A stretch of DNA of 64,000 bases, taken from positions 22,568,001 to 22,632,000 of the forward strand of contig CAIIXF020000001.1 of assembly GCA_903813345.2 (NCBI GenBank). The letters are read 5' to 3'. Positions within the stretch are counted from its first letter, which is position 1; each line of letters starts with the position of its first letter. Of this stretch, positions 27,223 through 64,000 are shown piece after piece. The notes beneath the pieces are model-generated. The model was not told the DNA's origin and did not search any database. It worked only from the letters and a program-made list of their open reading frames with translations. This DNA comes from Owenia fusiformis (taxonomy: Eukaryota). Made by a program: the position numbers and the translations under genes.

Positions 27223-27255
<33 letters not shown>

Positions 27256-32255: not shown

Positions 32256-33575
32256 TAGACTCCAGATTGAAAATCTGGAGTCTATTGTTTTTGCCAGTAT
32301 TCTTCTTATTATTCTTCTTTATTATTCTTTAGACGTTTTTTCTATAACTATAAGGTATCCAGTAAAGACCATTATACAGTTCATTTAGGTTGAGAATCTA
32401 GTTGGTGGGAAATTGGGTCAATTTTTTATCTAGGTCAAAGGTCAAGAACTAGGTCAAATCTTACATTTTCAACCTTCTGTCTATTATCTTCGTCGTTATT
32501 TATCGAAACGTCTTCCTATTTTTTTCATTATGTAGCTTAGAAACAGCCCTTTCACTAGTGTGCCATCAGATTTTTGATTACTGTTACTGATTTTGAGATA
32601 TGGCGTCCGGAAAGTAGGTCAGAACAAAAAGTTCTCCAAATTCAACATGTGAGTTATGAAATAAGTGTAGAATGATCTCAGGAATCCAAATCTGCAAATC
32701 AAATTTGGATCAGACTTCCGGTTCGGAAGTTATGGCGTTTTGAAAGCTCAAAAATCGCTAAATTTGGTGCCCATGTTAAGTCAATAGGAAAAAATGTTTT
32801 TTTTGAAGTGAAAAATACGAAATAAAGACTGAGTTCAGCTAAATATAATGAAAGCTTTTAAAAGAATGGGACCTCAAAAGCCATCTAGCTTCAAAATTTG
32901 GACACCAAAATGCCTAGGTCAAAATCTAGGTCAAATTCAAAGTTTTTCCTTAGTTTTGCGATTCTGACACTACACTTTAATTATATTCTTCGAAATTGTG
33001 TATACATGTAGCCAAGAGTGTGCTTATAGTGTTAGCCTTTTGCCGTCAGAGAGTATTTTGACCCACTTTTGAGATATGGTGTCCGAAAAGTAGGTGAAAA
33101 TAAAAAGTTCTCCAAATTTAACATATGAGTTATGAATTAAGGGTAGAATTTCCTCAGGATTCCGAGTCTGCAAATCAAATTTCGATCCAACTTCCGGTTT
33201 GAAAGTTATGGTGTTTTGAAATTTCGAGAAAAATCGATCTGATGGTATCCTGATAGAAAGTCAAGAGTAGAGAAGAAAATATTGGAAAATGCATCCATCC
33301 TTCTTTTGTGATCCTATCATATCCTTCCTATCTACCTTTTTGTATCCTCTCCTTCCTATTCTATCCCTTCTTCCTATTCTATTCTATCCTTCTTTCCTAT
33401 TCTATCCTATCGTTCCTTCCTATTCTAGCCTATCCTTCCTTCCTTTTTCATCCATCCATCTTTTTCTGGATGACTCAGCTTATTTTGGATGACTCGTCTT
33501 ATTCTGGATGACTCGGCTAAAAAAAAGTCTAGATCTGGAGTCTGAAATTGAACTTGTTCAATTTCCAAAGTCTAG
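32256..33575 (+). mobile_element. Intact HINE-like copy
   Basis: Innermost of three heads (32138, 32206, 32257); tail CTAG at 33575. Confidence 0.85.
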
Positions 33576-39061: not shown

Positions 39062-40425
39062 TAGACTCCAGATGTCAATCTGGAGTCTATTGTTTTTGCC
39101 AGTATTCTTCTTCTTCTTCTTCTTCTTATTATTTTTCTTTAAGAGTTTTTTCAATAACTATAAGGTATCCAGTAAAGACCATTATACAGTTCATTTAGGT
39201 TCAGTATCTAGTTGGTGGGAAATTGGGTCAAATTTTTATCTAGGTCAAAGGTCAAGAACTAGGTCAAATCTTACATTTTCAGTCTTCTGTCTATTATCTT
39301 CGTCGTTATTTCTCGAAACGTCTTCTTCTTTTTTTTCATCCTGTAGCTTACAAACAGCCCTTTCATAAGTGTGCCATCCGTTTAATGATTACTCTTACCG
39401 ATTTTGAAATATGGCGTCCGGAAAGTAGGTCACACCAAAACGTGCCCATGTTAAGTCAATGGGAAAAAAGATTTTTTTGAAGTGTAAAATTCGAAATATA
39501 GACTGAGTTCAGCTTAATTTAATGAAAGCTCTCAAAAGAAGGGGACCTCAAAAGCCATCTAGCTTCAAAATTTGGACACCAAAATGCCTAGGTCAAAATC
39601 TAGGTCAAATTCAAAGGTTTTCCTTATTTTGGCGATTCTGACACTACACTTCAATTATATTCTTCAAAATTGTGTATACATGTAGCCAAGAGTGTGCTTA
39701 TAGTGTTAGCCTTTTGCCGTCAGAAAGTAATTTGACCCACTTTTGAGATATGGTGTCCGAAAAGTAGGTCAAAATAAAAAATTCTCAAAATTAAATGTAT
39801 GAGTTATGAATTAGGAGTAGAATTTTGTCAGGAATCCGAATCTGCAAACTAAATTTCGATCCGACTTCCGGTTCGGAAGTTATGGCGTGTCCAAAAAGTA
39901 GGTCAAAATAAAAAGTTTCCAAATTTAACGTATGAGTTATGAATTAGGGGTAGAATTTTGTCAGGAATCCGAATCTGCAAACCAAATTGCGATCCGACTT
40001 CCGGTTCGGAAGTGATAGCGTTTTGAAATTTCGAGAAAAATCGATCTGATGATATCCTGATAGAAAGTCAAGGATAGCAAAGAAAATATTGAAAAATCCA
40101 TCCATCATTCCTACCCTATCTGATCCTATCCTATCTTATCCTTCCAATCTATACTTCTTTCATATTTTTTACCCTATCCTCCATATCCTATCCTTTCTTC
40201 CTATTCTATCCTATCCTTCTTTTCTATTCTATCCTATCGTTCCTTCCTATTCTATCCTATTCTTCCTTCCTATTCAATCCGCCCATCAATCTTTTTCTGG
40301 ATGACTCAGCTTATTTTTGATGACTCAGCTTATTCTGGATGACTCGGCTTATTCTGGATGACTGGGCTTAAAAAAGTCTAGATCTGGAGTCTGAAATTGA
40401 ACTTCGTTCAATTTCCAAAGTCTAG
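39062..40425 (+). mobile_element. HINE-like copy with an internal deletion
   Basis: Innermost of four heads (38911, 38960, 39013, 39063). It is a near copy of 22117-23615 with a GTGC-microhomology deletion at ~39445. Confidence 0.85.
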
Positions 40426-41797
40426 TTATTATTATTCTTTATTATTCTTCTTTCCCAGTTTTCTCGTTAACTAGAAGATATTGAGTAAAGTCGTATATAT
40501 GGTCCATTTAGGTCCTAGATCTAGTTTCTCGGAAATTGGGTCAAATTTTTATCTAGGTCAAAGGTCAAGAACTAGGTCAAATCCAGTACTTTGTCACTTT
40601 TTTCGATTTTCTCGGTCATCCTTCAGTATTTTCGATCCGGGTTTTTTTCATTGTATTCCTTATAAAAAAGTAGGAAACCTAGGGTCGATTTAGTTTTTTG
40701 ATATCTCAAACCGATTTCGAGATATCAGTGTCCGAAAACGAGGTCAAAAAAAAAGTTCTTCGAATCAAATGTCCAGGATATTAGTCTTATAGGAAATTTT
40801 CTCAGGATTCTGAATCTGAAAACGAAATTTGGATCTGACTTCCAGTTCGGAAGTTATGGCGTTTTGAAAACTCAAAAATCGCTAAATTTGGTGCCCATGT
40901 TAAGTCAATGGGAAAAAATATTTTTTTGAAGTGAAAAATACGGAATATAGACTGAGTTCAGCTTCATATAATCAAAGCCTTTAAAAGAAGGGGACCTCAA
41001 AAGCCATCTAGCTTCACAATTTGGACACCGAAATGCCTAGGTCAAAATCTAGGTCAAATTCATAGGTTTTCCTTATTTTTTCGATTCTGACACTACACTT
41101 TAATTATATTCTTCGAAATTGTGTATACATGTAGCCAAGAATATGCTAATAGTGTTAGCCTTTTGCCGTCAGAAAGTATTTTGACCCACTTTTGAGATAT
41201 GGTGTCCGAAAAGTAGGTCAAAATAAAAAGTTCTCCAAATTGAATATATGAGTTATGAATTAAGGGTGGAATTTTGTCAGGAATCCGAATCTGCAAACCA
41301 AATTTCGATCCGACTTCCGGTTCGGAAGTGATAGCGTTTTGAAATTTCGAGAAAAATCGATCTGATGGTATCCTGATAGAAAGTCAAGAGTAGAGAAGAA
41401 AATATTGAAAAATTCATCCATCCTTCCTATCTCATCTTATCCTATCCTTCCTATCTATCCTTTCTTCATATCTTTTCCTTCCTATCCTTCCTATCCTATC
41501 CTATCCTTTCTTCCTATTCTATTCTATCCTATCCTATCCTTCTTTCTTATTCTATCCTATCGTTCTTTCCTATTCTATCCTATCCTACCTTCCCTTTTTA
41601 TTTATCCATCTCTTTCTAGATGACTCAGCTTATTCTGGATGACTCGGCTTATTCTGGATGACTCGGCTAAAAAAAGTCTAGATCTGGAGTCTGAAATTGA
41701 ACTTCGTTCAATTTCCAAAATCTAGTTATTAGACTCCAGATGTCAATCTGGAGTCTATTGTTTTTGCCAGTATTCTTCTTCTTCTTCTTCTTCTTAT

Positions 41798-43559
41798 TAG
41801 ACTCCAGATGTCAATCTGGAGTCTATTGTTTTTGCCAGTATTCTTATTCTTCTTATTCTTATTATTCTTTGGGAGTTTTTTCAATAACTATGAGGTATCC
41901 AGTAAGAACCATAATACAGTTGATTTAGGTTCAGTATCTAGTTGGTGGGAAATTGGGTCAAAATTTTATCTAGGTCAAAGGTCAAGAACTAGGTCAAATC
42001 CAGTACTTTGTCACTTTTTTTGATTTTCTCGGTCGTCCTTCAATATTTTTGATCCGTTTTTTTTTCATTGTGTTCCTCATAAAAAAGTAGAAAATCTAGG
42101 GTCGATTTAGTTTTTTGGTATCTCAAACCGATTTCGAGATATTAGTGTCCGAAAACGAGGTCCAAAAAAAAGTTCTCCGAATCCAATGTCCAGGATATCA
42201 GTCTTATGGGAGACTTTCTCAGGATTCCGAATCTGAAAACCAAATTTCGATTTGACTCCCGGTTCAGAAGTTATGGCGTTTTGAAAATTCAAAAATCGCT
42301 AAATTTGGTGCCCCATGTTAATTCAATGGGAAAAAATATTTTTTTGAAGTGTAAAATACGAGATACAGACTAATCACAGCTAAACATAATGGAAGCCCAT
42401 AAAAGAAAGGGACCTCAAAACCTTCTTTTCATAAAAATTTGGACACCAAAATGCCTAGGTCAAAATCTAGGTCAAATTCAAAGTTTTTCCTTATTTTTGC
42501 GATTCTGACACTACAGATTAATTATATTCTTCAAAATTGTGTATACATGTAGCCAAGAGTGTGAATATAGTGTTAGCCTTTTGCCGTCAGAAAGTATTTT
42601 GCCCCACTTTTGAGATATGGTGTCCGAAAAGTAGGTCAAAATAAAAAATTCTCAAAATTTAACGTTTGAGTTATGAATTAAGTATAGAATTTTCTCAGGA
42701 ATCCGAATCTGCAAATCAAATTTCGATCCGACTTCCTGTTCGGAAGTTATGACATTTTGAAAGCTCAAAAATCGCTAAATTTGGTGCCCCGTGTTATGTC
42801 AATGGGAAAAAAGATTTTTTTGAAGTGTAAAATTCGAGATATAGACTAAGTACAGCTTAAAATAATGAAAGCCTATGAAAGAAGGGGACCTCGAAGGCTA
42901 CCTAACTTCAAAATTTGGACACCAAAATCCCCAGGTCAAAATCTAGGTCAAATTCATAGTTTTTCCTTATTTTTGCGATTCTGACACTATGTTTAAATGA
43001 TTTGCTTCAAAATTTTGTATACAGGTAGGAAAAAGTGTGCTAATAGTGTTAGCCTTTTGCCGTAAGAAAGTATTTCTACCCACTTTTGAGATATGGTGTC
43101 CGAAAAGTAGGTCAAAATAAAAAGTTCTCCAAATTTAACATATGAGTTATGAATTAAGGGAAGAATTTTCTCAGGAATCCGAGTCTGCAAACCAAATTTC
43201 GATCCGACTTCCGATTCGAAAGTTATGGCGTTTTGAAATTTCGAGAAAAATCGATCTGATGGTATCCTGATAGAAAGTCAAGAGTAGAGAAGAAAATATT
43301 GAAAAATGCATCCATCCTTCCTTTGTGATCCTATCGTATCCTTCTTATCTACCTTTCCTTCATATCCTCTCCTTCCTATCCTTCCTATTCTATTCCTATT
43401 CTAGCCTATCCTTCCTTCCTTTTTCATCCATCCATCCATCCATCTTTTTCTGGATGACTCAGCTTATTTTGGATGACTCGGCTTATTCTGGATGACTCGG
43501 CCAAAAAAAGTCTAGATCTGGAGTCTGAAATTGAACTTTGTTCAATTTCCAAAGTCTAG
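41798..43559 (+). mobile_element. Intact HINE-like copy
   Basis: Head at 41799; tail CTAG at 43559. The body closely resembles 25420-27168. Confidence 0.85.
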
Positions 43560-43569
43560 TTATTATTAT

Positions 43570-44751
43570 TAGACTCCAGATTGAAAATCTGGAGTCTATT
43601 GCTTTTGCCAGTTTTCTTCTTATTATTTTTCTTTCAGAATCTTCCTCCTTACAAGATTTCTCACCAACTAGAAGAGCTTACTTTAAGCTGCTTACATGAT
43701 CAACTAGAGAATGTATCTGGGATGATGGGAAATTAGGTCAAATTTTTATCTAGGTCAAAGGTCAAGAACTAGGTCAAATTTAGGTCAAATCAACATTCTG
43801 TCAATTATCTTCGTTGTTGTTTGTCGTTACTCCTTCATCTTTTTTTCATCATGTAGCTTAGAAAAAAACAAATCGAGAGTGTGCCATCCGTTTTTTGATT
43901 ACTCTTAGTGATTTTGAGATATTGCGTCCGGAAAGTAGGTCAAACTAAAAAGTTAACCAAATTTAATATATGAGCTATGAAATAAAGATAGAATTTTCTC
44001 AGGAATCCGAATCTGCAAACCAAATTTCGATCCGACCTCCCGTTCGGAAGTTATGGCGTTTTGAAATTTCGAGAAAAATCGATCTGATGGTATCCTGATA
44101 GAAAGTCAAGGAAAAAAGTTTTTTTTGAAGTGTAAAATACGAGATATAGACTGAGTACAGCTTAAGATAATGAATTCCTATAAAAGAAGGGGACCTCAAA
44201 AGCTACCTAGTTTCAATATTTGGACACCAAAATGCCTAGGTCAAAATCTAGGTCAAATTCATAGTTTTTCCTTATTTTTACGATTCTGGCACTACACTTT
44301 TAGGATTTGCTTCAAAATTTTGTATACAGGTAGAAAAGAGTGTGCTAATAGTGATAGCCTTTTGCCGTCAGAAAGTATTTTGACCCATTTTTGAGATATG
44401 GCGTCCTAAAAGTGGGTCAAAATAAAAAAATCTCCAAATTTAATGTATGAGTTATGAAATAAGGGTAGAATTTTCCCAGGAATCTGAATCTGCAAACCAA
44501 ATTTCAATCCGACTTTCGGTCAAAAATTCCTACTTACCTACCTACCTACCTACATACCTACTCGGCTACCTACTTAGCTACCTACTTCTCGGCTACCTAC
44601 TCAGCTACTTACTCAGCTACCTACTCAGCTACTCACTCAATTACTTAATCATCTACTTACTCAGCTTGCTACTCAGTTACTTACTCAGCTACCTACTCAA
44701 GTAAATCAATCTGGAGTCTTAAATTGAACTTTGTTCAATTTACCAATCTAG
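43570..44751 (+). mobile_element. Intact HINE-like copy with a CTACTCAG-type 3' repeat block
   Basis: Head at 43571; CTAC(C/T)TACTCAG repeats at ~44530-44700; tail CTAG at 44751. Confidence 0.85.
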
Positions 44752-47700
44752 TGATTTTTGCTTTCGTATGTGCAAAAAGCAAAAATCCTCCTCACACACG
44801 TTCTCACCAACGAGAGATATTTGGACAAATCTACTCATACACGTTGTTAGGGGGCTAGGCGTAGTTGCTCGGAAATTAGGTCAAATCCTTATCTGGGTCA
44901 AAGGTCGAAATCTAGGTCGAAATCTGCATTTCCGCTATTTTGGCCTCTCGAGCCTCCTTAAGAAGTCAGAATCGGAGGAAAACTAGCTGGTCGGAAAGAC
45001 AGTTTTCCGAGCATTAAAAAAACAGTGAACCAAATTTCAATCCGACCATTAGTTATCGAGATATACGCGTTTGAAGTTCGCGTACGGGCCACCGTTGCCG
45101 TATATCTAGACGACACCTGGTATACACGATGTATACGTATCTCTGCGAACAACAGACATTTGAAAGAAAATAGGCCCGGACGATGACTAGAGCATTTCAA
45201 AAACAACGTTTCCCTTCGTCCAACTAACGATTGCGGAATGTAGAACGATACGTACGCTGCTCGAATCTACGTCGAAAGCCCTATATGGACGTCTGGAAGG
45301 CCTGTTTTTTGAAGGACTATTTTTTGACCTCGACGGATCCGCGAAGCACGAGCCAGGCATTCTCCCCAACTACCTCCCTAGATTCCCCGACCTTTAATCG
45401 ACCATTATAGGCCCTCAGAGCGTCCGTAGAGCCATTTCCCTCTATACGCGTATGGGCAAATCCTATTATGATTTTTGCTTTCGTATGTGCAAAAAGCAAA
45501 AATCCTCCTCACACACGTTCTCACCAACGAGAGATATTTGGACAAATCTACTCATACACGTTGTTAGGGGGCTAGGCGTAGTTGCTCGGAAATTAGGTCA
45601 AATCCTTATCTGGGTCAAAGGTCGAAATCTAGGTCGAAATCTGCATTTCCGCTATTTTGGCCTCTCGAGCCTCCTTAAGAAGTCAGAATCGGAGGAAAAC
45701 TAGCTGGTCGGAAAGACAGTTTTCCGAGCATTAAAAAAACAGTGAACCAAATTTCAATCCGACCATTAGTTATCGAGATATACGCGTTTGAAGTTCGCGT
45801 ACGGGCCACCGTTGCCGTATATCTAGACGACACCTGGTATACACGATGTATACGTATCTCTGCGAACAACAGACATTTGAAAGAAAATAGGCCCGGACGA
45901 TGACTAGAGCATTTCAAAAACAACGTTTCCCTTCGTCCAACTAACGATTGCGGAATGTAGAACGATACGTACGCTGCTCGAATCTACGTCGAAAGCCCTA
46001 TATGGACGTCTGGAAGGCCTGTTTTTTGAAGGACTATTTTTTGACCTCGACGGATCCGCGAAGCACGAGCCAGGCATTCTCCCCAACTACCTCCCTAGAT
46101 TCCCCGACCTTTAATCGACCATTATAGGCCCTCAGAGCGTCCGTAGAGCCATTTCCCTCTATACGCGTATGGGCAAATCCTATTATGATTTTTGCTTTCG
46201 TATGTGCAAAAAGCAAAAATCCTCCTCACACACGTTCTCACCAACGAGAGATATTTGGACAAATCTACTCATACACGTTGTTAGGGGGCTAGGCGTAGTT
46301 GCTCGGAAATTAGGTCAAATCCTTATCTGGGTCAAAGGTCGAAATCTAGGTCGAAATCTGCATTTCCGCTATTTTGGCCTCTCGAGCCTCCTTAAGAAGT
46401 CAGAATCGGAGGAAAACTAGCTGGTCGGAAAGACAGTTTTCCGAGCATTAAAAAAACAGTGAACCAAATTTCAATCCGACCATTAGTTATCGAGATATAC
46501 GCGTTTGAAGTTCGCGTACGGGCCACCGTTGCCGTATATCTAGACGACACCTGGTATACACGATGTATACGTATCTCTGCGAACAACAGACATTTGAAAG
46601 AAAATAGGCCCGGACGATGACTAGAGCATTTCAAAAACAACGTTTCCCTTCGTCCAACTAACGATTGCGGAATGTAGAACGATACGTACGCTGCTCGAAT
46701 CTACGTCGAAAGCCCTATATGGACGTCTGGAAGGCCTGTTTTTTGAAGGACTATTTTTTGACCTCGACGGATCCGCGAAGCACGAGCCAGGCATTCTCCC
46801 CAACTACCTCCCTAGATTCCCCGACCTTTAATCGACCATTATAGGCCCTCAGAGCGTCCGTAGAGCCATTTCCCTCTATACGCGTATGGGCAAATCCTAT
46901 TATGATTTTTGCTTTCGTATGTGCAAAAAGCAAAAATCCTCCTCACACACGTTCTCACCAACGAGAGATATTTGGACAAATCTACTCATACACGTTGTTA
47001 GGGGGCTAGGCGTAGTTGCTCGGAAATTAGGTCAAATCCTTATCTGGGTCAAAGGTCGAAATCTAGGTCGAAATCTGCATTTCCGCTATTTTGGCCTCTC
47101 GAGCCTCCTTAAGAAGTCAGAATCGGAGGAAAACTAGCTGGTCGGAAAGACAGTTTTCCGAGCATTAAAAAAACAGTGAACCAAATTTCAATCCGACCAT
47201 TAGTTATCGAGATATACGCGTTTGAAGTTCGCGTACGGGCCACCGTTGCCGTATATCTAGACGACACCTGGTATACACGATGTATACGTATCTCTGCGAA
47301 CAACAGACATTTGAAAGAAAATAGGCCCGGACGATGACTAGAGCATTTCAAAAACAACGTTTCCCTTCGTCCAACTAACGATTGCGGAATGTAGAACGAT
47401 ACGTACGCTGCTCGAATCTACGTCGAAAGCCCTATATGGACGTCTGGAAGGCCTGTTTTTTGAAGGACTATTTTTTGACCTCGACGGATCCGCGAAGCAC
47501 GAGCCAGGCATTCTCCCCAACTACCTCCCTAGATTCCCCGACCTTTAATCGACCATTATAGGCCCTCAGAGCGTCCGTAGAGCCATTTCCCTCTATACGC
47601 GTATGGGCAAATCCTATTATGATTTTTGCTTTCGTATGTGCAAAAAGCAAAAATCCTCCTCACACACGTTCTCACCAACGAGAGATATTTGGACAAATCT

Positions 47701-50700
47701 ACTCATACACGTTGTTAGGGGGCTAGGCGTAGTTGCTCGGAAATTAGGTCAAATCCTTATCTGGGTCAAAGGTCGAAATCTAGGTCGAAATCTGCATTTC
47801 CGCTATTTTGGCCTCTCGAGCCTCCTTAAGAAGTCAGAATCGGAGGAAAACTAGCTGGTCGGAAAGACAGTTTTCCGAGCATTAAAAAAACAGTGAACCA
47901 AATTTCAATCCGACCATTAGTTATCGAGATATACGCGTTTGAAGTTCGCGTACGGGCCACCGTTGCCGTATATCTAGACGACACCTGGTATACACGATGT
48001 ATACGTATCTCTGCGAACAACAGACATTTGAAAGAAAATAGGCCCGGACGATGACTAGAGCATTTCAAAAACAACGTTTCCCTTCGTCCAACTAACGATT
48101 GCGGAATGTAGAACGATACGTACGCTGCTCGAATCTACGTCGAAAGCCCTATATGGACGTCTGGAAGGCCTGTTTTTTGAAGGACTATTTTTTGACCTCG
48201 ACGGATCCGCGAAGCACGAGCCAGGCATTCTCCCCAACTACCTCCCTAGATTCCCCGACCTTTAATCGACCATTATAGGCCCTCAGAGCGTCCGTAGAGC
48301 CATTTCCCTCTATACGCGTATGGGCAAATCCTATTATGATTTTTGCTTTCGTATGTGCAAAAAGCAAAAATCCTCCTCACACACGTTCTCACCAACGAGA
48401 GATATTTGGACAAATCTACTCATACACGTTGTTAGGGGGCTAGGCGTAGTTGCTCGGAAATTAGGTCAAATCCTTATCTGGGTCAAAGGTCGAAATCTAG
48501 GTCGAAATCTGCATTTCCGCTATTTTGGCCTCTCGAGCCTCCTTAAGAAGTCAGAATCGGAGGAAAACTAGCTGGTCGGAAAGACAGTTTTCCGAGCATT
48601 AAAAAAACAGTGAACCAAATTTCAATCCGACCATTAGTTATCGAGATATACGCGTTTGAAGTTCGCGTACGGGCCACCGTTGCCGTATATCTAGACGACA
48701 CCTGGTATACACGATGTATACGTATCTCTGCGAACAACAGACATTTGAAAGAAAATAGGCCCGGACGATGACTAGAGCATTTCAAAAACAACGTTTCCCT
48801 TCGTCCAACTAACGATTGCGGAATGTAGAACGATACGTACGCTGCTCGAATCTACGTCGAAAGCCCTATATGGACGTCTGGAAGGCCTGTTTTTTGAAGG
48901 ACTATTTTTTGACCTCGACGGATCCGCGAAGCACGAGCCAGGCATTCTCCCCAACTACCTCCCTAGATTCCCCGACCTTTAATCGACCATTATAGGCCCT
49001 CAGAGCGTCCGTAGAGCCATTTCCCTCTATACGCGTATGGGCAAATCCTATTATGATTTTTGCTTTCGTATGTGCAAAAAGCAAAAATCCTCCTCACACA
49101 CGTTCTCACCAACGAGAGATATTTGGACAAATCTACTCATACACGTTGTTAGGGGGCTAGGCGTAGTTGCTCGGAAATTAGGTCAAATCCTTATCTGGGT
49201 CAAAGGTCGAAATCTAGGTCGAAATCTGCATTTCCGCTATTTTGGCCTCTCGAGCCTCCTTAAGAAGTCAGAATCGGAGGAAAACTAGCTGGTCGGAAAG
49301 ACAGTTTTCCGAGCATTAAAAAAACAGTGAACCAAATTTCAATCCGACCATTAGTTATCGAGATATACGCGTTTGAAGTTCGCGTACGGGCCACCGTTGC
49401 CGTATATCTAGACGACACCTGGTATACACGATGTATACGTATCTCTGCGAACAACAGACATTTGAAAGAAAATAGGCCCGGACGATGACTAGAGCATTTC
49501 AAAAACAACGTTTCCCTTCGTCCAACTAACGATTGCGGAATGTAGAACGATACGTACGCTGCTCGAATCTACGTCGAAAGCCCTATATGGACGTCTGGAA
49601 GGCCTGTTTTTTGAAGGACTATTTTTTGACCTCGACGGATCCGCGAAGCACGAGCCAGGCATTCTCCCCAACTACCTCCCTAGATTCCCCGACCTTTAAT
49701 CGACCATTATAGGCCCTCAGAGCGTCCGTAGAGCCATTTCCCTCTATACGCGTATGGGCAAATCCTATTATGATTTTTGCTTTCGTATGTGCAAAAAGCA
49801 AAAATCCTCCTCACACACGTTCTCACCAACGAGAGATATTTGGACAAATCTACTCATACACGTTGTTAGGGGGCTAGGCGTAGTTGCTCGGAAATTAGGT
49901 CAAATCCTTATCTGGGTCAAAGGTCGAAATCTAGGTCGAAATCTGCATTTCCGCTATTTTGGCCTCTCGAGCCTCCTTAAGAAGTCAGAATCGGAGGAAA
50001 ACTAGCTGGTCGGAAAGACAGTTTTCCGAGCATTAAAAAAACAGTGAACCAAATTTCAATCCGACCATTAGTTATCGAGATATACGCGTTTGAAGTTCGC
50101 GTACGGGCCACCGTTGCCGTATATCTAGACGACACCTGGTATACACGATGTATACGTATCTCTGCGAACAACAGACATTTGAAAGAAAATAGGCCCGGAC
50201 GATGACTAGAGCATTTCAAAAACAACGTTTCCCTTCGTCCAACTAACGATTGCGGAATGTAGAACGATACGTACGCTGCTCGAATCTACGTCGAAAGCCC
50301 TATATGGACGTCTGGAAGGCCTGTTTTTTGAAGGACTATTTTTTGACCTCGACGGATCCGCGAAGCACGAGCCAGGCATTCTCCCCAACTACCTCCCTAG
50401 ATTCCCCGACCTTTAATCGACCATTATAGGCCCTCAGAGCGTCCGTAGAGCCATTTCCCTCTATACGCGTATGGGCAAATCCTATTATGATTTTTGCTTT
50501 CGTATGTGCAAAAAGCAAAAATCCTCCTCACACACGTTCTCACCAACGAGAGATATTTGGACAAATCTACTCATACACGTTGTTAGGGGGCTAGGCGTAG
50601 TTGCTCGGAAATTAGGTCAAATCCTTATCTGGGTCAAAGGTCGAAATCTAGGTCGAAATCTGCATTTCCGCTATTTTGGCCTCTCGAGCCTCCTTAAGAA

Positions 50701-53700
50701 GTCAGAATCGGAGGAAAACTAGCTGGTCGGAAAGACAGTTTTCCGAGCATTAAAAAAACAGTGAACCAAATTTCAATCCGACCATTAGTTATCGAGATAT
50801 ACGCGTTTGAAGTTCGCGTACGGGCCACCGTTGCCGTATATCTAGACGACACCTGGTATACACGATGTATACGTATCTCTGCGAACAACAGACATTTGAA
50901 AGAAAATAGGCCCGGACGATGACTAGAGCATTTCAAAAACAACGTTTCCCTTCGTCCAACTAACGATTGCGGAATGTAGAACGATACGTACGCTGCTCGA
51001 ATCTACGTCGAAAGCCCTATATGGACGTCTGGAAGGCCTGTTTTTTGAAGGACTATTTTTTGACCTCGACGGATCCGCGAAGCACGAGCCAGGCATTCTC
51101 CCCAACTACCTCCCTAGATTCCCCGACCTTTAATCGACCATTATAGGCCCTCAGAGCGTCCGTAGAGCCATTTCCCTCTATACGCGTATGGGCAAATCCT
51201 ATTATGATTTTTGCTTTCGTATGTGCAAAAAGCAAAAATCCTCCTCACACACGTTCTCACCAACGAGAGATATTTGGACAAATCTACTCATACACGTTGT
51301 TAGGGGGCTAGGCGTAGTTGCTCGGAAATTAGGTCAAATCCTTATCTGGGTCAAAGGTCGAAATCTAGGTCGAAATCTGCATTTCCGCTATTTTGGCCTC
51401 TCGAGCCTCCTTAAGAAGTCAGAATCGGAGGAAAACTAGCTGGTCGGAAAGACAGTTTTCCGAGCATTAAAAAAACAGTGAACCAAATTTCAATCCGACC
51501 ATTAGTTATCGAGATATACGCGTTTGAAGTTCGCGTACGGGCCACCGTTGCCGTATATCTAGACGACACCTGGTATACACGATGTATACGTATCTCTGCG
51601 AACAACAGACATTTGAAAGAAAATAGGCCCGGACGATGACTAGAGCATTTCAAAAACAACGTTTCCCTTCGTCCAACTAACGATTGCGGAATGTAGAACG
51701 ATACGTACGCTGCTCGAATCTACGTCGAAAGCCCTATATGGACGTCTGGAAGGCCTGTTTTTTGAAGGACTATTTTTTGACCTCGACGGATCCGCGAAGC
51801 ACGAGCCAGGCATTCTCCCCAACTACCTCCCTAGATTCCCCGACCTTTAATCGACCATTATAGGCCCTCAGAGCGTCCGTAGAGCCATTTCCCTCTATAC
51901 GCGTATGGGCAAATCCTATTATGATTTTTGCTTTCGTATGTGCAAAAAGCAAAAATCCTCCTCACACACGTTCTCACCAACGAGAGATATTTGGACAAAT
52001 CTACTCATACACGTTGTTAGGGGGCTAGGCGTAGTTGCTCGGAAATTAGGTCAAATCCTTATCTGGGTCAAAGGTCGAAATCTAGGTCGAAATCTGCATT
52101 TCCGCTATTTTGGCCTCTCGAGCCTCCTTAAGAAGTCAGAATCGGAGGAAAACTAGCTGGTCGGAAAGACAGTTTTCCGAGCATTAAAAAAACAGTGAAC
52201 CAAATTTCAATCCGACCATTAGTTATCGAGATATACGCGTTTGAAGTTCGCGTACGGGCCACCGTTGCCGTATATCTAGACGACACCTGGTATACACGAT
52301 GTATACGTATCTCTGCGAACAACAGACATTTGAAAGAAAATAGGCCCGGACGATGACTAGAGCATTTCAAAAACAACGTTTCCCTTCGTCCAACTAACGA
52401 TTGCGGAATGTAGAACGATACGTACGCTGCTCGAATCTACGTCGAAAGCCCTATATGGACGTCTGGAAGGCCTGTTTTTTGAAGGACTATTTTTTGACCT
52501 CGACGGATCCGCGAAGCACGAGCCAGGCATTCTCCCCAACTACCTCCCTAGATTCCCCGACCTTTAATCGACCATTATAGGCCCTCAGAGCGTCCGTAGA
52601 GCCATTTCCCTCTATACGCGTATGGGCAAATCCTATTATGATTTTTGCTTTCGTATGTGCAAAAAGCAAAAATCCTCCTCACACACGTTCTCACCAACGA
52701 GAGATATTTGGACAAATCTACTCATACACGTTGTTAGGGGGCTAGGCGTAGTTGCTCGGAAATTAGGTCAAATCCTTATCTGGGTCAAAGGTCGAAATCT
52801 AGGTCGAAATCTGCATTTCCGCTATTTTGGCCTCTCGAGCCTCCTTAAGAAGTCAGAATCGGAGGAAAACTAGCTGGTCGGAAAGACAGTTTTCCGAGCA
52901 TTAAAAAAACAGTGAACCAAATTTCAATCCGACCATTAGTTATCGAGATATACGCGTTTGAAGTTCGCGTACGGGCCACCGTTGCCGTATATCTAGACGA
53001 CACCTGGTATACACGATGTATACGTATCTCTGCGAACAACAGACATTTGAAAGAAAATAGGCCCGGACGATGACTAGAGCATTTCAAAAACAACGTTTCC
53101 CTTCGTCCAACTAACGATTGCGGAATGTAGAACGATACGTACGCTGCTCGAATCTACGTCGAAAGCCCTATATGGACGTCTGGAAGGCCTGTTTTTTGAA
53201 GGACTATTTTTTGACCTCGACGGATCCGCGAAGCACGAGCCAGGCATTCTCCCCAACTACCTCCCTAGATTCCCCGACCTTTAATCGACCATTATAGGCC
53301 CTCAGAGCGTCCGTAGAGCCATTTCCCTCTATACGCGTATGGGCAAATCCTATTATGATTTTTGCTTTCGTATGTGCAAAAAGCAAAAATCCTCCTCACA
53401 CACGTTCTCACCAACGAGAGATATTTGGACAAATCTACTCATACACGTTGTTAGGGGGCTAGGCGTAGTTGCTCGGAAATTAGGTCAAATCCTTATCTGG
53501 GTCAAAGGTCGAAATCTAGGTCGAAATCTGCATTTCCGCTATTTTGGCCTCTCGAGCCTCCTTAAGAAGTCAGAATCGGAGGAAAACTAGCTGGTCGGAA
53601 AGACAGTTTTCCGAGCATTAAAAAAACAGTGAACCAAATTTCAATCCGACCATTAGTTATCGAGATATACGCGTTTGAAGTTCGCGTACGGGCCACCGTT

Positions 53701-54789
53701 GCCGTATATCTAGACGACACCTGGTATACACGATGTATACGTATCTCTGCGAACAACAGACATTTGAAAGAAAATAGGCCCGGACGATGACTAGAGCATT
53801 TCAAAAACAACGTTTCCCTTCGTCCAACTAACGATTGCGGAATGTAGAACGATACGTACGCTGCTCGAATCTACGTCGAAAGCCCTATATGGACGTCTGG
53901 AAGGCCTGTTTTTTGAAGGACTATTTTTTGACCTCGACGGATCCGCGAAGCACGAGCCAGGCATTCTCCCCAACTACCTCCCTAGATTCCCCGACCTTTA
54001 ATCGACCATTATAGGCCCTCAGAGCGTCCGTAGAGCCATTTCCCTCTATACGCGTATGGGCAAATCCTATTATGATTTTTGCTTTCGTATGTGCAAAAAG
54101 CAAAAATCCTCCTCACACACGTTCTCACCAACGAGAGATATTTGGACAAATCTACTCATACACGTTGTTAGGGGGCTAGGCGTAGTTGCTCGGAAATTAG
54201 GTCAAATCCTTATCTGGGTCAAAGGTCGAAATCTAGGTCGAAATCTGCATTTCCGCTATTTTGGCCTCTCGAGCCTCCTTAAGAAGTCAGAATCGGAGGA
54301 AAACTAGCTGGTCGGAAAGACAGTTTTCCGAGCATTAAAAAAACAGTGAACCAAATTTCAATCCGACCATTAGTTATCGAGATATACGCGTTTGAAGTTC
54401 GCGTACGGGCCACCGTTGCCGTATATCTAGACGACACCTGGTATACACGATGTATACGTATCTCTGCGAACAACAGACATTTGAAAGAAAATAGGCCCGG
54501 ACGATGACTAGAGCATTTCAAAAACAACGTTTCCCTTCGTCCAACTAACGATTGCGGAATGTAGAACGATACGTACGCTGCTCGAATCTACGTCGAAAGC
54601 CCTATATGGACGTCTGGAAGGCCTGTTTTTTGAAGGACTATTTTTTGACCTCGACGGATCCGCGAAGCACGAGCCAGGCATTCTCCCCAACTACCTCCCT
54701 AGATTCCCCGACCTTTAATCGACCATTATAGGCCCTCAGAGCGTCCGTAGAGCCATTTCCCTCTATACGCGTATGGGCAAATCCTATTA
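44752..54789 (+). repeat. Head-to-tail tandem array, 717-bp unit x exactly 14
   Basis: The unit runs TGATTTTTGCTTTCG...GGGCAAATCCTATTA, and 14 x 717 = 10038 bp. The ORF track repeats identically every 717 bp, and I saw no differences between copies by eye. Confidence 0.97.
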
Positions 54790-54908
54790 TTAGACTCCAG
54801 ATTGAAAATCTGGAGTCTATTGTTTTTGCCTGTTTTCTTTATTATTATTATTATTATTAGACTCCAGATGAAAATCTGGAGTCTATTGCTTTTGCCAGTT
54901 TTCTTTAT

Positions 54909-56385
54909 TAGACTCCAGATTGAAAATCTGGAGTCTATTGTTTTTGCCAGTATTCTTCTTCTTATTATTATTATTATTATTATTTTTCTTTAAGAGTTTT
55001 TTCAATAACTATAAGGTATCCAGTAAAGACCATTATACAGTTCATTTAGGTTCAGTATCTAGTTGGTGGGAAATTGGGTCAAATTTTTATCTAGGTCAAA
55101 GGTCAAGAATTAGGTCAAATCCAGTACTTTGTCACTTTTTTCGATTTTCTCGGTCGTCCTTCAATATTTTTGATCCGGTTTTTTTCATTGTGTTCCTCAT
55201 AAAAAAGTAGGAAATCTAGGGTCGATTTAGTTTTTTGATATCTCAAACCGATTTTGAGATATGGCGTCCAGAAAGTAGGTCACACCAAAAAGTGCTCCAA
55301 ATTCAATGTATGAGTTATGAATTAGGGGTAGAATTTTGTCAGGAATCGGAATCTACAAACCAAAGTTCGATCCGACTTCTGGTTCGGAAGTTATGGCGTT
55401 TTGAAAACTCAAAAATCGCTAAATTTTGTGCCCATGTTAAGTCAATGGGAAAAAGATATTTTTTGAAGTGAAAAATACGAAATATAGACTGAGTTCAGCT
55501 TAATTTAATGAAAGCCTTCAAAAGAAGGGGACCTCAAAAGCCATCTAGCTTCAGAATTTGGACACCAAAATTCCTAGGTCAAAATCTAGGTCAAATTCAA
55601 AGTTTTTTCTTATTTTTGCGATTCTGACACTACACTTTAATTATATTCTTCGAAATTGTGTATACACGTAGTCAAGAGTGTGCTAATAACGTTAGCCTTT
55701 TGCCGTCATAAAGAATTTTGACCCACTTTTGAGATATGTTGTCCGAAAAGTAGGTCAAAATAAAAAGTTCTCCAAATTTAACGTTTGAGTTATGAATTAA
55801 GAATAGAATTTTCTCAGAAATCCGAATCTGCAAACCAAATTTCGATCCGACTTCCGGTTCCGAAGTTATGGCGTGTCCAAAAAGTAGGTCAAAATAAAAA
55901 TTCGCCAAATTTAATGTATGAGTTATGAATTAGGGGTAGAATTTTGTCAGGAATCCGAATCTTTAAATCAAATTTCGATCCGACTTCCGGTTCGGAAGTT
56001 ATGGCGTTTTGAAATTTCGGAAAATCGATCTGATGGTATCCTGATAGAAAGTCAAGAGTAGAGAAGAAAATATTGAAAAATTCATCCATCCTTCATATCT
56101 GATCCTATCATATCCTATCCTTCCTTCGTATCCTTTCCTTCCTATCCTTTCTATCCTCTCCTATCATATCCTTTCTTCCTATTTTGTTCTATCCTATCCT
56201 TCTTTCTTATTCTATCCTATCGTTCCTTCCCATTCTATCCTATCCTACCTTCCTGTTTTATCCATCCATCTTATTCTGGATGACTCAGCTTATTCTGGAT
56301 GACTCGGCTTATTTTAGATGACTGGGCTTAAAAAAGTCTGGATCTGGAGTCTGAAATTGAACTTCGTTCAATTTCCCAAGTCTAG
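54909..56385 (+). mobile_element. Intact HINE-like copy
   Basis: Innermost of three heads (54792, 54859, 54910); tail CTAG at 56385. Confidence 0.85.
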
Positions 56386-59300
56386 TTATTATTCTTTCAG
56401 AATCTTCCTCCTTCCCAGATTTCTCACCAACTAGAAGAGCTTACTTTAAGCTGCTTACATGATTAACTAGGGAATGTATCTGGGATGATGGGAAATTAGG
56501 TCAAATTTTTATCTAGGTCAAAGGTCAAGAACTAGGTCAAATCCAGTACTTTGTCACTTTTTCCCATTATCTCGGTCGTCCTTCAATATTTTTGATCTTG
56601 GTTTTTTTCATTGTGTTCCTCATAAAAAAGTAGAAAACCTAGGGTCGATTTAGTTTTTTGGTATCTCAAACCGATTTCGAGATATCAGTGTCCGAAAACG
56701 AGGTTCAAAAAAAATTTCACCGAATCCAATGTCCGGGATATCAGTCTTATAGGAAATCTTCTCAGGATTCCGAATCTGAAAACCAAATTTCGATCTGACT
56801 TCCGGTTGAGAAGTTATGGCGTTTTGAAAATTCAAAATCGCTAAATTTGGTGCCCCATGTTAATTCAATGGGAAAAAATATTTTTTTGAAGTGTAAAATA
56901 CGAGATATAGACTAAGCACAGCTAAACATAATGGAAGCCCATAAAAGAAAGGGACCATAAGACCTTCTTTTCATAAAAATTTGGACACCAAAATGCCTAG
57001 TTCAAAATCTAGGTCAAATTCAAAGTTTTTCCTTATTTTTGCGATTTTGACACTACAGATTAATTATATTCTTCGAAAATTTGTATACATGTAGCCAAGA
57101 GTGTGCTAATAGTGTTAGCCTTTTGCCGTCAGAAAGTATTTTGACCCACTTTTGAGATATGGTGTCCGAAAAGTAGGTCAAACTAAAAAATTCTCCAAAT
57201 TTAACGTATGAGTTATGAATTAGGGGTAGAATTTTATCAGGAATCTGAATCTGCAAACCAAATTTTGATTCGAACTCCTGTTCGGAAGTTATGGCGTTTT
57301 GAAAGCTCAAAAATCGCTAAATTTGCTGCCCCATGTTATGTCAATGGGAAAAAAGATTTTTTTGAAGTGTAAAATACGAGATATAAACTGAGTACAGCTT
57401 AATATAATGAAAGCCTATGAAAGAAGGGGACCTCGAAGGCTACTTAGCTTCAAAATTTGGACACCAAAATCCCTAGGTTAAAATCTAGGTCAAATTCATA
57501 GTTTTTCCTTATTTTTGCGATTCTGACACTATATTCAAATGATTTGCTTTAAAATTTTGTATACAGGTAGCAAAGAGTATGCTCATAGTGTTAGCCTTTT
57601 GCCGTCAGAAAGTATTTTGACCCACTTTTGAGATATGGTGTCCGAAAAGTAGGTCAAAATAAAAACTATCCAAATTTAATGTGTGAGTTATGAATTAAAG
57701 GTAAAACTTTCTCAGGAATCCAAATCTGCAAACCAAATTTCGATCCGACTTCTTGTTCTGAAGTTATGGCGTTTTGAAATCTCAAAAATCGCTAAATTTG
57801 GTGCCCCATGTTAAATCAATGGGACCGAATAATTTTTTGAAGTGTAAAAATACGAGATATAGAATGAGTACAGCTAAACATAATGAAAGCCCATAAAAGA
57901 AGGGGACCTCAAAAGCTACTTTCCTTCAAAATTTGGACACCAAAATACCTAGTTCAAAATCTAGGTCAAATTCTTAGTTTTTTCTTATTGTTGCAATTCG
58001 GACACTACACTTCAATGATATTCTTCGAAATTTTGTATACATGTAGCAAAGAGTGTGCTCATAATGTTAACTTGTTGCCGTCAAGAAGTGTTTTGACCCA
58101 CTTTTGAGATATGGTGATCGAAATGTATGTCAAAATAAAAAGTTCTCCAAATTTAACGTATGAGTTATGAATTAGGGGTAGAATTTCCTAAGGAATCCGG
58201 ATCTGAAATTAAAATTGCGATCCGACCCCCGGTTAAGATTCTAAGCCATTTTGAAGTTTGAAATTCGCACTTGCCAGTATTCACGATGCAGATAGATCAA
58301 ATATACTTTCAAAAATTCCTACATACCCTACTTTACCTCCCTACCTACTCAGCTACTTATTTGACTACTTACTCAATTGCTTAATTAGTTATTACTTACT
58401 TAGCTACTTACTCAGCTACTAACTCAGGTACTTACTCAGCTACTTACTCAGCTACCTACTCAGCTTTTTACCCAGTTACTTACTCAGCTACTTACTCAAC
58501 TACTACTAAGGTACTTACTCAGCTAATTACTCAGTTAATTACTCAGCTCTTTACTGATCTATCTAGGTAAAATAAATCTGGAGTCTTAAATTGAACTTGT
58601 TCAATTTCACAAATCTAGTTATTCTTATTTTTCTTTTTGAGTTTTCTCAATAACTATAAGGTATCCAGTAAAGACCATAATACAGTTTGTTTAGGTTCAG
58701 TCTCTAGTTGGTGGGAAATTGGGTCAAATTTTTATCTAGGTCAAAGGTCAAGAACTAGGTCAAATCCAGTACTTTGTCACTTTTTTTGATTTTCTCGGTC
58801 GTTCTTCAATATTTTCGATCCGTTTTTTTTTCATTGTGTTCCTTATAAAAAAGTAGGAAACCTAGGATCGATTTAGTTTTTTGATATCTCAAACCGATTT
58901 CGAGATATCAGTGTCCGAAAACGAGGTCCAAAAAAAAGTTCTCCGAATCAAATGTCCAGGATATTGGTCTTATAGGAAATTTTCTCAGGATTCCGAATCT
59001 GAAAACGAAATTTGGATCGGACTTCCGGTTCTGAAGTTATGGCGTTTTGAAAGCTCAAAAATCGCTAAATTTGGAGCCCATGTTAAGTCAATGGGAAAAA
59101 AGATTTTATTGAAGTGAAAAATACGAAATATAGACTGAGTTCAGCTAAATATAATGAAAGCCTTTAAAAGAATGGGACCTCAAAAGCCATCTAGCTTTAA
59201 AATTTGGACACCAAAATGCCTAGGTCAAAATCTAGGTCAAATTCAAAGTTTTTCCTTATTTTTGCGATTCTGACACTACAGATTGATTATATTCTTCAAA

Positions 59301-61387
59301 ATTTTGTATACATGTAGCCAAGAGTGTGCTTATAGTGTTAGCATTTTGCCGTCAGAAAGTATTTTGCCCCACTTTTGAGATATGGTGTCCGAAAAGTAGG
59401 TCAAAATAAAAAGTTCTCCAAATTTGACGTTTGAGTTATGAATTAAGAATAGAATTTTCTCAGAAATCCGAATCTGCAAACCAAATTTCGATCCGACTTC
59501 CGGTTCCGAAGTAATGGTGTGTCCAAAAAGTAGGTCAAAATAAAAATTCGCCAAATTTAATGTATGAGTTATGAATTAGGGGTAGAATTTTGTCAGGAAT
59601 CCGAATCTTTAAATCAAATTTATATCCGACTTCCGGTTCGGAAGTTATGGCGTTTTGAAGTTTCGGAAAATCGATCTGATGGTATCCTGATAGAAAGTCA
59701 AGAGTAGAGAAGAAAATATTGAAAAATTCATCCATCCGTCCAATCTGATCCTATCCTATCCTTCCTATCTATCCTTCATTCATATCCTTTCCTTCCTATC
59801 CTTCCTATCCTCTCCTACCATATCCTTTCTTCCTATTCTGTCCTATCCTATCCTTCTTTCTTATTCTATCCTATCGATCCTTCCCATTCTATTCTATCCT
59901 ACCTTCCTATGTTATCCATCCATCTTATTCTGGATGACTCGGCTTATTTAAGATGACTGGGCTTAAAAAAGTCTAGATCTGGAGTCTGAAATTGAACTTC
60001 GTTCAATTTCCAAAGTCTAGTTATTTTTCTTTAAGAGTTTTTTCAATAACTATAAGGTATCCAGTAAAGACCATTATACAGTTCATTTAGGTTCAGTATC
60101 TAGTTGGTGGGAAATTGGGTCAAATTTTTATCTAGGTCAAAGGTCAAGAACTAGGTCAAATCTTACATTTTCAGTCTTCTGTCTATTATCTTTGTCGTTA
60201 TTTCTCGAAACGTCTTCTTCTTTTTTCCATCCTGTAGCTTACAAACAGCCCTTTCATAAGTGTGCCATCCGTTTTTTGATTACTCTTACTGATTTTGAAA
60301 TATGGCGTCCGGAAAGTAGGTCACACCAAAACTTGCTCCAAATTCAATGTATGAGTTATGAATTAGGAGTACAATTTTGTCAGGAATCCGAATCTGCAAA
60401 CCAAATTTCAATCAGATTTCCGGTTCGGAAGTTAAGGCGTTTTAAAAGCTCAAAATTTGGTGCCCATGTTAAGTCAATGCGAAAAAAGATTTTTTTGAAG
60501 TGAAAAATTCTAAATATAGACTGAGTTCAGCTTAATTTAATGAAAGCTTTCAAAAGAAGGGGACCTCAAAAGCCATCTAGCTTCAAAATTTGGACACCAA
60601 AATGCCTAGGTCAAAATCTAGGTCAAATTCAAAGGTTTTCCTTATTTTTGCGATTCTGACACTACACTTCAATTATATTCTTCGAAATTGTGTATACATG
60701 TAGCCAAGAGTCTGCTAATAGTGTTAGCCTTTTGCCGTCAGAAAGTATTTTGACCCACTTTTGAGATATGGTGTCCGAAAAGTAGGTCAAAATAAAAAGT
60801 TCTCCAAATTTAAGGTTTGAGTTATGAATTAGGGGTAGAATTTTGTCAGGAATCCGAATCTGCAAACCAAATTTCGATCCGACTTACAGTTCCGAAGTTA
60901 TGGCGTGTCCAAAAAGTAGGTCAAAATAAAAATTCGCCAAATTTAACGTATGAGTTATGAATTAGGGGTAGAATTTTGTCAGGAATCCGAATCTTTAAAT
61001 CAAATTTAGATCCGACTTCCGGTTCGGAAGTTATGGCGATTTGAAATTTCGGAAAATCGATCTGATGGTATCCTGATAGAAAGTCAAGAGTAGAGAAGAA
61101 AATATTGAAAAATTCATCCATCCTTCCTATCTGATCCTATCCTATCCTTCCTATCTATCCTTCCTTCGTATCCTTTCCTTCCTATCCTTCCTATCCTCTC
61201 CTATCATATCCTTCTTCCTATTCTGTTCTATCCTATCCTTCTTTCTTTTTCTATCCTATCGTTCCTTCCCATTCTATCCTATCCTACCTTCCTATTTAAA
61301 CCATCCATCTTATTCTGGATGACTCAGCTTATTCTGGATGACTCGGCTTATTTTAGATGACTGGGCTTAAAAAAGTCTAGTTATTAT

Positions 61388-63709: not shown

Positions 63710-64000
63710 TTATTATTCATTCTTTCTTTCTTTCTTTCTTTCTTTCCGAACACTTTTTCTCAGCAACTAGAAGAACTTACTTTAACCTACTTACATGGCT
63801 AACATAGCCCATCAACCTAGTTTCTGGGAAATTAGGTCAAATTTTTATCTAGGTCAAAGGTCAAGAACTAGGTCAAATTTAGGTCAATCAACATTCTGTC
63901 AATTATCTTCGTTGTTACTTGTGGTAACTCCTTCATCTTTTTTTCAACATGTAGCTTAGAAAAAAACAAATCGAGAATGTGCCATCCGTTTTTTGATTAC

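Follow-up and report, generated by a model that had tools for sequence, protein, structure and literature searches.

We describe a 10-kb tandem array of 14 identical 717-bp units in a 64,000-nucleotide stretch of DNA from the annelid Owenia fusiformis (GenBank assembly GCA_903813345.2, contig CAIIXF020000001.1, positions 22,568,001 to 22,632,000 of the forward strand). This whole stretch is referred to below as the window, and its own numbering is used throughout. The best explanation for the 717-bp unit is that it represents a terminator-less derivative of a non-autonomous rolling-circle transposon of the Helentron/Helitron2 type (a HINE), and the array constitutes a very young, unusually clean case of a known route by which rolling-circle transposons seed satellite DNA. 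As to how the 14 copies came to lie side by side, we tentatively favour the integration of a rolling-circle concatemer, produced from a 717-nt circle, at a T^T joint between two older elements.

The array (10,038 bp, 44752-54789) was compared unit by unit: units 2-14 show no difference from unit 1 in any of the 13 comparisons, and the 14 identical copies reported in a first-pass annotation of this DNA are thereby verified. The exact 717-bp periodicity runs on for 0 nt leftward and 1 nt (a T) rightward of these coordinates. The left edge lies directly 3' of the terminal CTAG (44751) of one neighbouring element and the right edge directly 5' of the head of the next, as that annotation had placed them. 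The 717-bp period is outside the reach of TRF, whose longest period was 500; this program saw a 15-bp motif inside the unit 14 times, at a spacing of 717 bp. The unit begins with T-GATTTTTGC and ends with CCTATTA, and the junction between units (..CCTATTA|TGATT..), which contains the TATTAT pointed out earlier, occurs 13 times. A perfect periodicity extending over 10 kb is exceptional in this window, since exact repeats elsewhere reach at most 323 bp (266 bp within the surrounding cluster of elements).

The copy number had been given as exactly 14.0 and taken as a sign of a circular template. This holds for the periodicity, but not necessarily for the inserted DNA: because the unit ends with TATTA and the following base is T, the TATTAT at the right edge leaves the boundary ambiguous by up to 6 nt, and the inserted DNA may equally be 13 x 717 + 711 nt. 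Nor is an integer informative by itself, since any tandem duplication of a fixed segment, including duplication in situ, yields one.

The complete lack of differences between the units, set against a median divergence of about 14% between the neighbouring elements, indicates that the array is far younger than its neighbours, i.e. the elements of the cluster are old relative to it. At face value, the amplification took place within roughly 3x10^4 to 3x10^5 generations (95% Poisson bound for 0 differences in 10,038 bp, with assumed mutation rates of 10^-8 to 10^-9 per site). The array also differs in composition, with a GC content of 0.45-0.46 versus 0.33-0.36 in the surroundings. The observed/expected ratio of CpG (CpG o/e) is 1.35 for the whole unit and 1.52 for unit positions 301-717 (GC 0.48); the ratio is lower in the flanking elements (0.76-0.79) and in the first 22 kb of the window (0.60). 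Such CpG richness is compatible with a young age as well as with an unmethylated or a foreign source, and does not choose between these.

The array is embedded in a long head-to-tail cluster of elements (Table 1), parted only by (TTA)n/(TTC)n filler, which makes the region 22003-64000 in effect a macro-satellite of complete transposons. The order within these elements is as follows: an optional head, a left region with a TAGGTCAAA-rich core, central tandem repeats whose unit measures 133 bp or about 476 bp, a microsatellite of either the (ATCCT)n or a 12-mer type, a 19-bp repeat in two to four copies, and a tail. The head, T-TAGACTCCAGAT followed after 3-5 nt by ATCTGGAGTCTA, forms a strong hairpin (dG -12 kcal/mol; z -8.2 and -7.9) that starts at nucleotide 2 of TTAGACTCC. 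As far as the accessible parts of the sources cited in this text go, HINEs are characterized by a 5' subterminal inverted repeat (subTIR) of 11-15 nt close to the 5' end with a complementary inverted repeat (IR) nearby, a 3' subTIR followed by a palindrome located 8-35 nt from the 3' end, microsatellites, central repeats and T-rich sites of insertion (PMC4067079; Cg_HINE, PMC7492417). The neighbouring elements show the same signals: 24 heads contain the 11-nt AGACTCCAGAT and, 3-5 nt further on, the complementary ATCTGGAGTCT, while 18 tails contain ATCTGGAGTCT, beginning about 43 nt from the element end, then the palindrome AAATTGAAC/GTTCAATTT (9-bp stem), and then about 11 nt up to CTAG. Because of this anatomy, and because they end like canonical Helitrons at the 3' side, in CTAG preceded at 11 nt by a hairpin, the neighbours are rolling-circle transposons in the broad sense, Helentron/Helitron2 in style and non-autonomous. 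The first-pass annotation did not name this identity; it did remark that the neighbours are visibly diverged from each other, which agrees with a median identity of 85.9% (range 76.5-95.4%) in 342 high-scoring segment pairs (HSPs) of at least 300 bp among 19 elements. No autonomous partner encoding a Rep/helicase is present in the window. Helentron proteins have been reported in Annelida (Thomas 2014, PMC4067079).

At its 5' end, the 717-bp unit carries a perfect hairpin (unit 2-36) with a 12-bp stem and an 11-nt loop, as already noticed from the sequence at the array boundary. It begins at nucleotide 2, and no other perfect hairpin in the entire unit has a stem of 8 bp or longer; folded as single-stranded DNA (ssDNA) it has a dG of -9.9 kcal/mol and a z of -5.05, which none of 200 shuffled sequences equalled. 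The length of its arms (12) and their spacing (11) are within the ranges published for HINE subTIR/IR pairs, and the hairpin is the structural counterpart of the HINE 5' subTIR plus IR, with a sequence unrelated to the subTIR of the neighbours. The left boundary of the unit is set by two independent marks, the periodicity and the CTAG of the neighbour, and the hairpin starts 1 nt later.

At the 3' end, the signals of the family are absent. None of the 24 AGACTCCAGAT and 42 ATCTGGAGTCT sites of the window (1 mismatch allowed) falls inside the array, in line with the earlier remark that the unit lacks the family termini, and the unit has neither a CTAG end nor the family terminator hairpin. A 3' subTIR complementary to the 5' one was not detected: within the last 60 nt nothing comes closer than an edit distance of 5, and 1656 of 2000 shuffled sequences do as well. 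We also considered GGGCAAATCC, located at the 3' end of the unit, as a hidden 3' subTIR, and rejected it, its likeness by eye to the 3' arm of the hairpin being no better than chance. The unit thus has the 5' but not the 3' signature of a HINE, and is described here as a terminator-less derivative and not as a full member. For the same reason, and with a single locus at hand, the proposal that it represents a second family is unproven.

The homology of the unit to the neighbouring elements is confined to a few blocks. A BLAST comparison of the unit with the rest of the window yielded 25 HSPs, 20 of them in unit 111-190 (51-81 bp each, 81-87% identity, one for each of the 20 neighbour core sites) and five in unit 274-303 (19-27 bp each, 89-100% identity). 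In a multiple alignment with seven neighbours the unit is ungapped and colinear from position 37 on, with an identity of 41-54% over positions 37-110 (74 columns) and of 78-87% over positions 111-173 (63 bp), beyond which the identity decays. When unit 1-110 was compared with six neighbours, z was 4.8, 3.2 and 2.2 against three of them and below 0 against the other three; the closest left region (z 4.8) is that of the element just upstream of the array. The shared core (unit 111-190) and two further motifs, TTCTCACCAAC at unit 50 and ACCAAATTTCAATCCGAC at unit 278, were correctly recognized in the first-pass annotation, as was the otherwise divergent, CpG-rich character of the unit, which is unrelated to the neighbours over positions 296-717. 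By these alignments, the 717-bp unit is a distant relative of the neighbouring HINE-type family. Its progenitor is not in the window, where local elements match only unit 37-190 and 274-303, and BLAST found no further 717-type copy in the window outside the array. An alternative unit start about 28 nt upstream, suggested by a MAFFT alignment that set the 3' end of the unit over the head hairpin of the neighbours, was dropped because local alignments of unit 1-110 and 500-717 with head-bearing neighbours were at background.

The core of the unit (44862-44925) and those of all neighbours (e.g. 43728-43790) contain runs of RGGTCRAA/TAGGTCAAA repeats. These include GGTCAAAGGTC, which we take to resemble a direct-repeat pair of nuclear-receptor half-sites, and the TAGGTCAAA word recurs in the central repeats of the neighbours. 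The RGGTCRAA core is a candidate protein-binding site, and may serve as the cis site for the Rep/helicase.

In 17 of 18 cases the CTAG of a tail is followed by TTATT..., the sole exception being 44751, where the array follows. Removal of the array (13 x 717 + 711 nt) leaves CTAGT^TATTATTAGACTCC, identical to the joints at two of the 17 other tails (25045 and 27168). Because of this match, the array reads as sitting at a T^T position in an ordinary T-rich joint, apparently without a duplicated target; Helentrons have been reported to insert without target duplication at T-rich sites (Thomas 2014, PMC4067079). The TAT target proposed earlier is right insofar as it designates a T-rich joint 3' of CTAG, and is better described as T^T in a (TTA)n joint. 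The T-rich filler before the next head is 6 nt long. An arbitrary breakpoint would be expected within 2 nt of the start of the hairpin at roughly 5 in 717 positions.

Table 1. Features of the array, its first unit and the adjoining elements (window coordinates)
Feature	Position	Strand	Remarks
Cluster of 19 or more HINE-type elements (1.2-2.3 kb) arranged head to tail, every one on the + strand	22003..64000	+	Continues past the right end of the window
Upstream HINE-type element	43560..44751	+	3' subTIR (44709-44719), palindrome with 9-bp stem and CTAG (44748-44751) adjoin the array
Array of 14 x 717-bp units, non-coding	44752..54789	+	All 13 unit comparisons free of mismatches
5' hairpin of unit 1: GATTTTTGCTTT, 11-nt loop, AAAGCAAAAATC	44753..44787	+	Recurs every 717 bp
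Left region (unit 37-110), including CCTCC and TTCTCACCAAC	44788..44861	+	Weak ungapped homology to the left regions of the neighbours
Conserved core (unit 111-190), four RGGTCRAA repeats	44862..44941	+	Only block strongly common with the neighbours
Unit 274-303, a short stretch matching the ACCAAATTTCRATCCGAC motif found in the 133/476-bp central repeats of the neighbours	45025..45054	+	
Unrelated CpG-rich 3' part (unit 296-717)	45047..45468	+	About 420 bp
10-bp palindrome ATACGCGTAT (unit 693-702)	45444..45453	.	15 nt before the 3' boundary of the unit; candidate weak terminator
Downstream HINE-type element	54790..56385	+	Three tandem 5' heads (54790-54960), body, first canonical 3' end past the array

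The coincidence of the array boundaries with element termini favours a unit made by a transposase. According to the explanation that we prefer, the unit would have kept a 5' module (terminal hairpin, left region and core) and lost the 3' subTIR, the terminator hairpin and the CTAG end, these signals being replaced by about 420 bp of unrelated CpG-rich DNA, possibly captured or internal to the progenitor, with a new 3' end. We infer a circle, an enzyme acting on it, a role of the core and a concatemer step as follows. Rep would nick the 5' end and close a 717-nt circle, 3' to 5', with the joint ..CCTATTA|TGATT..; with no efficient terminator, rolling-circle synthesis would lap this circle repeatedly; and the resulting linear concatemer would integrate, without target duplication, at T^T, where two older elements meet in a T-rich joint. 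The outcome would be 14 identical 5' ends upstream of the single canonical 3' end of the next element.

This proposal can be set against published work. In the Helraiser system the 5' end is needed and the 3' end is not; the 3' hairpin serves as terminator, and failure of termination leads to new 3' ends with captured DNA (PMC4778049). Tandem Helitron arrays in the bat and in Bombyx (silkworm) have been ascribed to terminator bypass (PMC4067079), and Helitron or Helentron elements that carry, or become, tandem repeats are known from Drosophila, bivalves, plants, Xenopus and Hydractinia. In the model proposed for plants by Xiong in 2016 to explain arrays of truncated Helitrons, a circular template that has lost the 3' terminator gives rise to concatemers carrying many 5' ends but a single 3' end, which then integrate (via PMC12628747). 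The arrangement observed here is of this kind: the 5' end is kept, the 3' terminator is gone, and 14 unit 5' ends plus three neighbour heads stand before one body and a single canonical tail at 56385. The tandem heads of the cluster display the same pattern on a small scale, since 24 heads occur in 9 of the 19 elements, with one to six in tandem before one body and one 3' end (the 10 remaining elements are headless).

Several observations weigh against concatemer integration. The evidence comes from one locus, and the termini and the mobility of the unit are candidate properties only. Only about 150 bp of the unit are related to the neighbours; for positions 296-717 the Smith-Waterman z did not exceed 0.6 against any of six neighbours, and the 5' hairpin shows no sequence similarity to the neighbour heads (z -0.6 for unit 1-110 versus the head-bearing element at 54790). 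The integer count and the perfect identity are equally expected from duplication in situ, and read correction and short-read polishing may have contributed to the exact identity, if the window derives from the published assembly. Finally, a terminator-less process should end at a random phase, yet at most 6 nt are missing from the last unit, so that the model has to invoke luck or a weak signal at the 3' end. The candidate for such a signal is the palindrome at unit 693-702, which is present, as the first-pass annotation had claimed, although it cannot be distinguished statistically from chance, the fold of the last 50 nt of the unit not being significant (z -1.35, with 22 of 200 shuffled sequences as good).

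The first-pass annotation had proposed that a multimer was inserted from a circular template or that the sequence was amplified very recently, and these are indeed the two live explanations. Its general picture of a young array of a divergent relative is sound, while the integer count, the second family, the TAT target and the palindrome were unsupported or overstated. Very recent amplification would amount to the birth of a satellite in situ: local duplication of a 717-bp element, or of an interval between neighbours, would have been followed by an increase to 14 copies through unequal sister-chromatid exchange or slippage, with an expansion recent enough, or gene conversion strong enough, to account for the identity. 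This explanation, which we consider unlikely and nevertheless take seriously, agrees with the integer count and the identical young copies, as any tandem duplication would, with the 1-nt microhomology (T) at the two breakpoints, and with the richness of the cluster in local tandem duplications (heads, 133/476-bp repeats); moreover, the change from transposable element (TE) to satellite through local tandemization is well documented (PMC12628747). It would, however, require a segment that started 0-1 nt from the CTAG of a neighbour and 1 nt before the only strong hairpin, and that ended inside the 6-nt T-rich filler before the next head, although no flanking direct repeats longer than 1 nt are available to start the first duplication and the repeat holds no partial unit and no neighbour sequence. 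Plain local duplication is disfavoured because breakpoints near a neighbour terminus, the only hairpin and the 6-nt filler are left unexplained without a transposase. A different way of building the array on the spot would be a series of 14 independent insertions, each at the end of the previous copy, resulting from a preference of the transposase for its own terminus. For Drosophila, a preference for certain insertion sites has been put forward as the chief origin of TE dimers (McGurk and Barbash, via PMC12628747), and all 19 neighbours are themselves arranged head to tail. However, a single joint would have received all 14 insertions and the 17 equivalent CTAG|TTATT joints elsewhere in the window none, all within the very short time demanded by zero divergence, which makes this scenario very improbable.

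The array may also be real while its perfection is partly a product of assembly, i.e. slightly differing copies, or the copy number, may have been homogenized by correction and polishing. Short reads cannot be placed within a near-identical array of 10 kb, and polishing votes away rare copy-specific variants; such variants could have been lost here in this way. The published O. fusiformis assembly, if it is the source of the window, was made from PacBio Sequel continuous long reads with Canu, one round of Arrow, and Racon with Illumina reads mapped by bwa (PMC9977687). On the other hand, the read N50 of 25-30 kb and the very high depth imply that many reads span 10 kb, so that the gross copy number should be sound (PMC9977687). 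Differences of about 2% between adjacent short repeats were kept elsewhere in the window (heads at 38906-39112, 98% matches), and both junctions with the neighbours are clean and biologically sensible. The exactness of both the identity and the count depends on the assembly, and homogenization of this kind is a serious concern, although we regard it as improbable.

There is only a slight chance that the unit is a foreign or non-transposon replicon, such as a small circular virus or satellite that has integrated, a retrozyme-like repeat with a ribozyme, a contaminant or a vector. Its GC content (45.5%) and CpG o/e (1.35), compared with 35% and 0.6-0.8 in the host, and a hairpin that adjoins iteron-like RGGTCRAA repeats, could be read in this sense. 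Against it stand about 150 bp that are clearly homologous to elements of the host itself and lie in the same orientation. Coding capacity is lacking as well: the array contains no stop-to-stop frame longer than 102 amino acids (aa), a search with the 102-aa frame found no related protein, and in the seven open reading frames (ORFs) of the unit no Pfam family scored above its cut-off (the single match, Ctf19_RWD1, reached 17.8 bits versus a cut-off of 26). An integrated circular Rep virus or satellite was rejected for want of a Rep gene and of a significant origin stem-loop; a nick-in-loop origin across the unit junction would fold with -2.3 kcal/mol, and 71 of 300 shuffled sequences did as well. 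A retrozyme or viroid-like ribozyme repeat was discarded as well, as there is no self-cleaving motif and no Rfam family at the gathering score (no match in the whole window; at E up to 5, the region 44400-46400 gave five chance-level matches, the best to an unrelated sRNA model with E 0.15), and the circular ssDNA fold is, with a z of -1.7, unremarkable, so that a viroid-like rod was rejected too. ARAGORN detected no tRNAs, and an origin from a structured RNA or a tRNA was likewise discarded. Finally, a contaminant, vector or prokaryotic origin was rejected in view of the absence of blastn matches in plasmids or phages, and an exact 25-mer of the CpG-rich half does not occur in any of 185,579 bacterial and archaeal genomes, a weak test that covers exact matches only.

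A bolder extension of the concatemer explanation, which we think quite improbable, is that of an active Helentron mini-replicon: a terminator-less extrachromosomal circle kept by Rep/helicase, with an iteron-like core origin beside the 5' hairpin, that would re-enter chromosomes as concatemers. If this were true, the locus would be a satellite caught at birth, and the CpG-rich half would mark a recent capture or a horizontal arrival.

Among known systems, the neighbours most resemble HINEs, including DINE-1-like elements (Thomas, Vadnagara and Pritham 2014, PMC4067079; PMC7492417), in their subTIRs, IR, palindrome, central repeats, microsatellite and T-rich joints without visible target duplication. 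They differ in ending with CTAG, with the palindrome 11 nt upstream, and in the location of the microsatellite to the right of the central repeats and not in the left flank. The 717-bp unit shares with HINEs the geometry of the 5' hairpin (12-nt arms, 11 nt apart, from nucleotide 2), the left region and the core, and lacks the 3' subTIR, CTAG end, microsatellite and central array. Arrays of truncated Helitrons (Xiong, Dooner and Du 2016, via PMC12628747; PMC4067079; Xenopus, PMC12001565) are similar in their head-to-tail arrangement, repeated 5' ends, absence of a terminator and single 3' end. However, the element described here is from an animal (an annelid) and is Helentron-like, unlike the plant Helitron1 type studied by Xiong, and the Xenopus arrays comprise 2-7 repeats (PMC12001565), compared with 14 of zero divergence in this case; in addition, more than half of the 717-bp unit is unrelated to the local family, and the array is nested in an older cluster of full elements. 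With Helraiser (Grabundzija et al. 2016, PMC4778049) the proposed mechanism would share an essential 5' end, a 3' hairpin terminator and read-through capture, here proposed from the sequence, whereas Helraiser is a Helitron1 element that inserts at AT and for which concatemer integration is not described in the accessible part of that report. The array also resembles TE-derived satellite DNA (PMC12628747), in that a whole TE-derived unit has been tandemized and could seed a satellite, but it is a single 10-kb locus with no known dispersal and, as yet, no divergence or higher-order structure.

The cluster displays further variation. Head modules of 50-70 bp, each composed of the subTIR hairpin plus ATTGYTTTTGCCAGT, occur at 22003-22170, 25046-25420, 32133-32310, 38906-39112, 41726-41866 and 54790-54960. 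Three elements (43560-44751, 56386-58618 and 61389-63709) form a sub-family in which a (TACYTACTCAGC)n 12-mer microsatellite replaces (ATCCT)n and the tail is of a variant type (..GAGTCTTAAATTGAAC..ACCAATCTAG); the element directly upstream of the array belongs to it. At 61369-61389 an element lacks the 3' subTIR, the palindrome and CTAG, and its sequence passes directly from the first GTCTAG, usually found 5' of the subTIR, to TTATTATTAGACTCC. The tail seems to have suffered a deletion between its two GTCTAG direct repeats, or to have been terminated prematurely at them.

The left part of the window contains ordinary genes, and the window is most likely annelid chromosomal DNA. An intronless ORF of 1,269 aa (2065-5874, + strand) encodes about 14 near-identical TPR repeats of 43 aa, with an exact internal DNA repeat of 323 bp; its N-terminal region is annotated in paralogues as a protein-PII uridylyltransferase N-terminal domain. 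All 13 matches are from O. fusiformis, the closest paralogue being 87% identical. The family has many paralogues in this species, some of them fused to OTU domains, and the CpG o/e of the ORF is 0.19-0.3. On the - strand, an exon-sized frame at 10751-11041 matches the C-terminal domain of CEP76 (Pfam PF24652, E 5e-07, above the cut-off), a sign that a normal host gene separates the TPR gene from the transposon cluster.

In the accessible parts of the literature searched, Helentron arrays of this kind have not been described in annelids; the word "Helitron" is absent from the main text of PMC9977687, and "Helitron", "satellite" and "rolling" are absent from two supplementary files. If the perfection of the array proved to be a polishing artefact, the locus would be merely one more TE-derived tandem repeat. 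Whether rolling-circle transposons seed satellites through integrated concatemers or through expansion in place afterwards is a debate that still relies mainly on arrays of great age and advanced decay, and the zero divergence, clean junctions at termini and lost terminator make this locus a nearly ideal natural test case. It would extend Helentron-type tandemization to annelids, with the short conserved core as a candidate cis-acting site.

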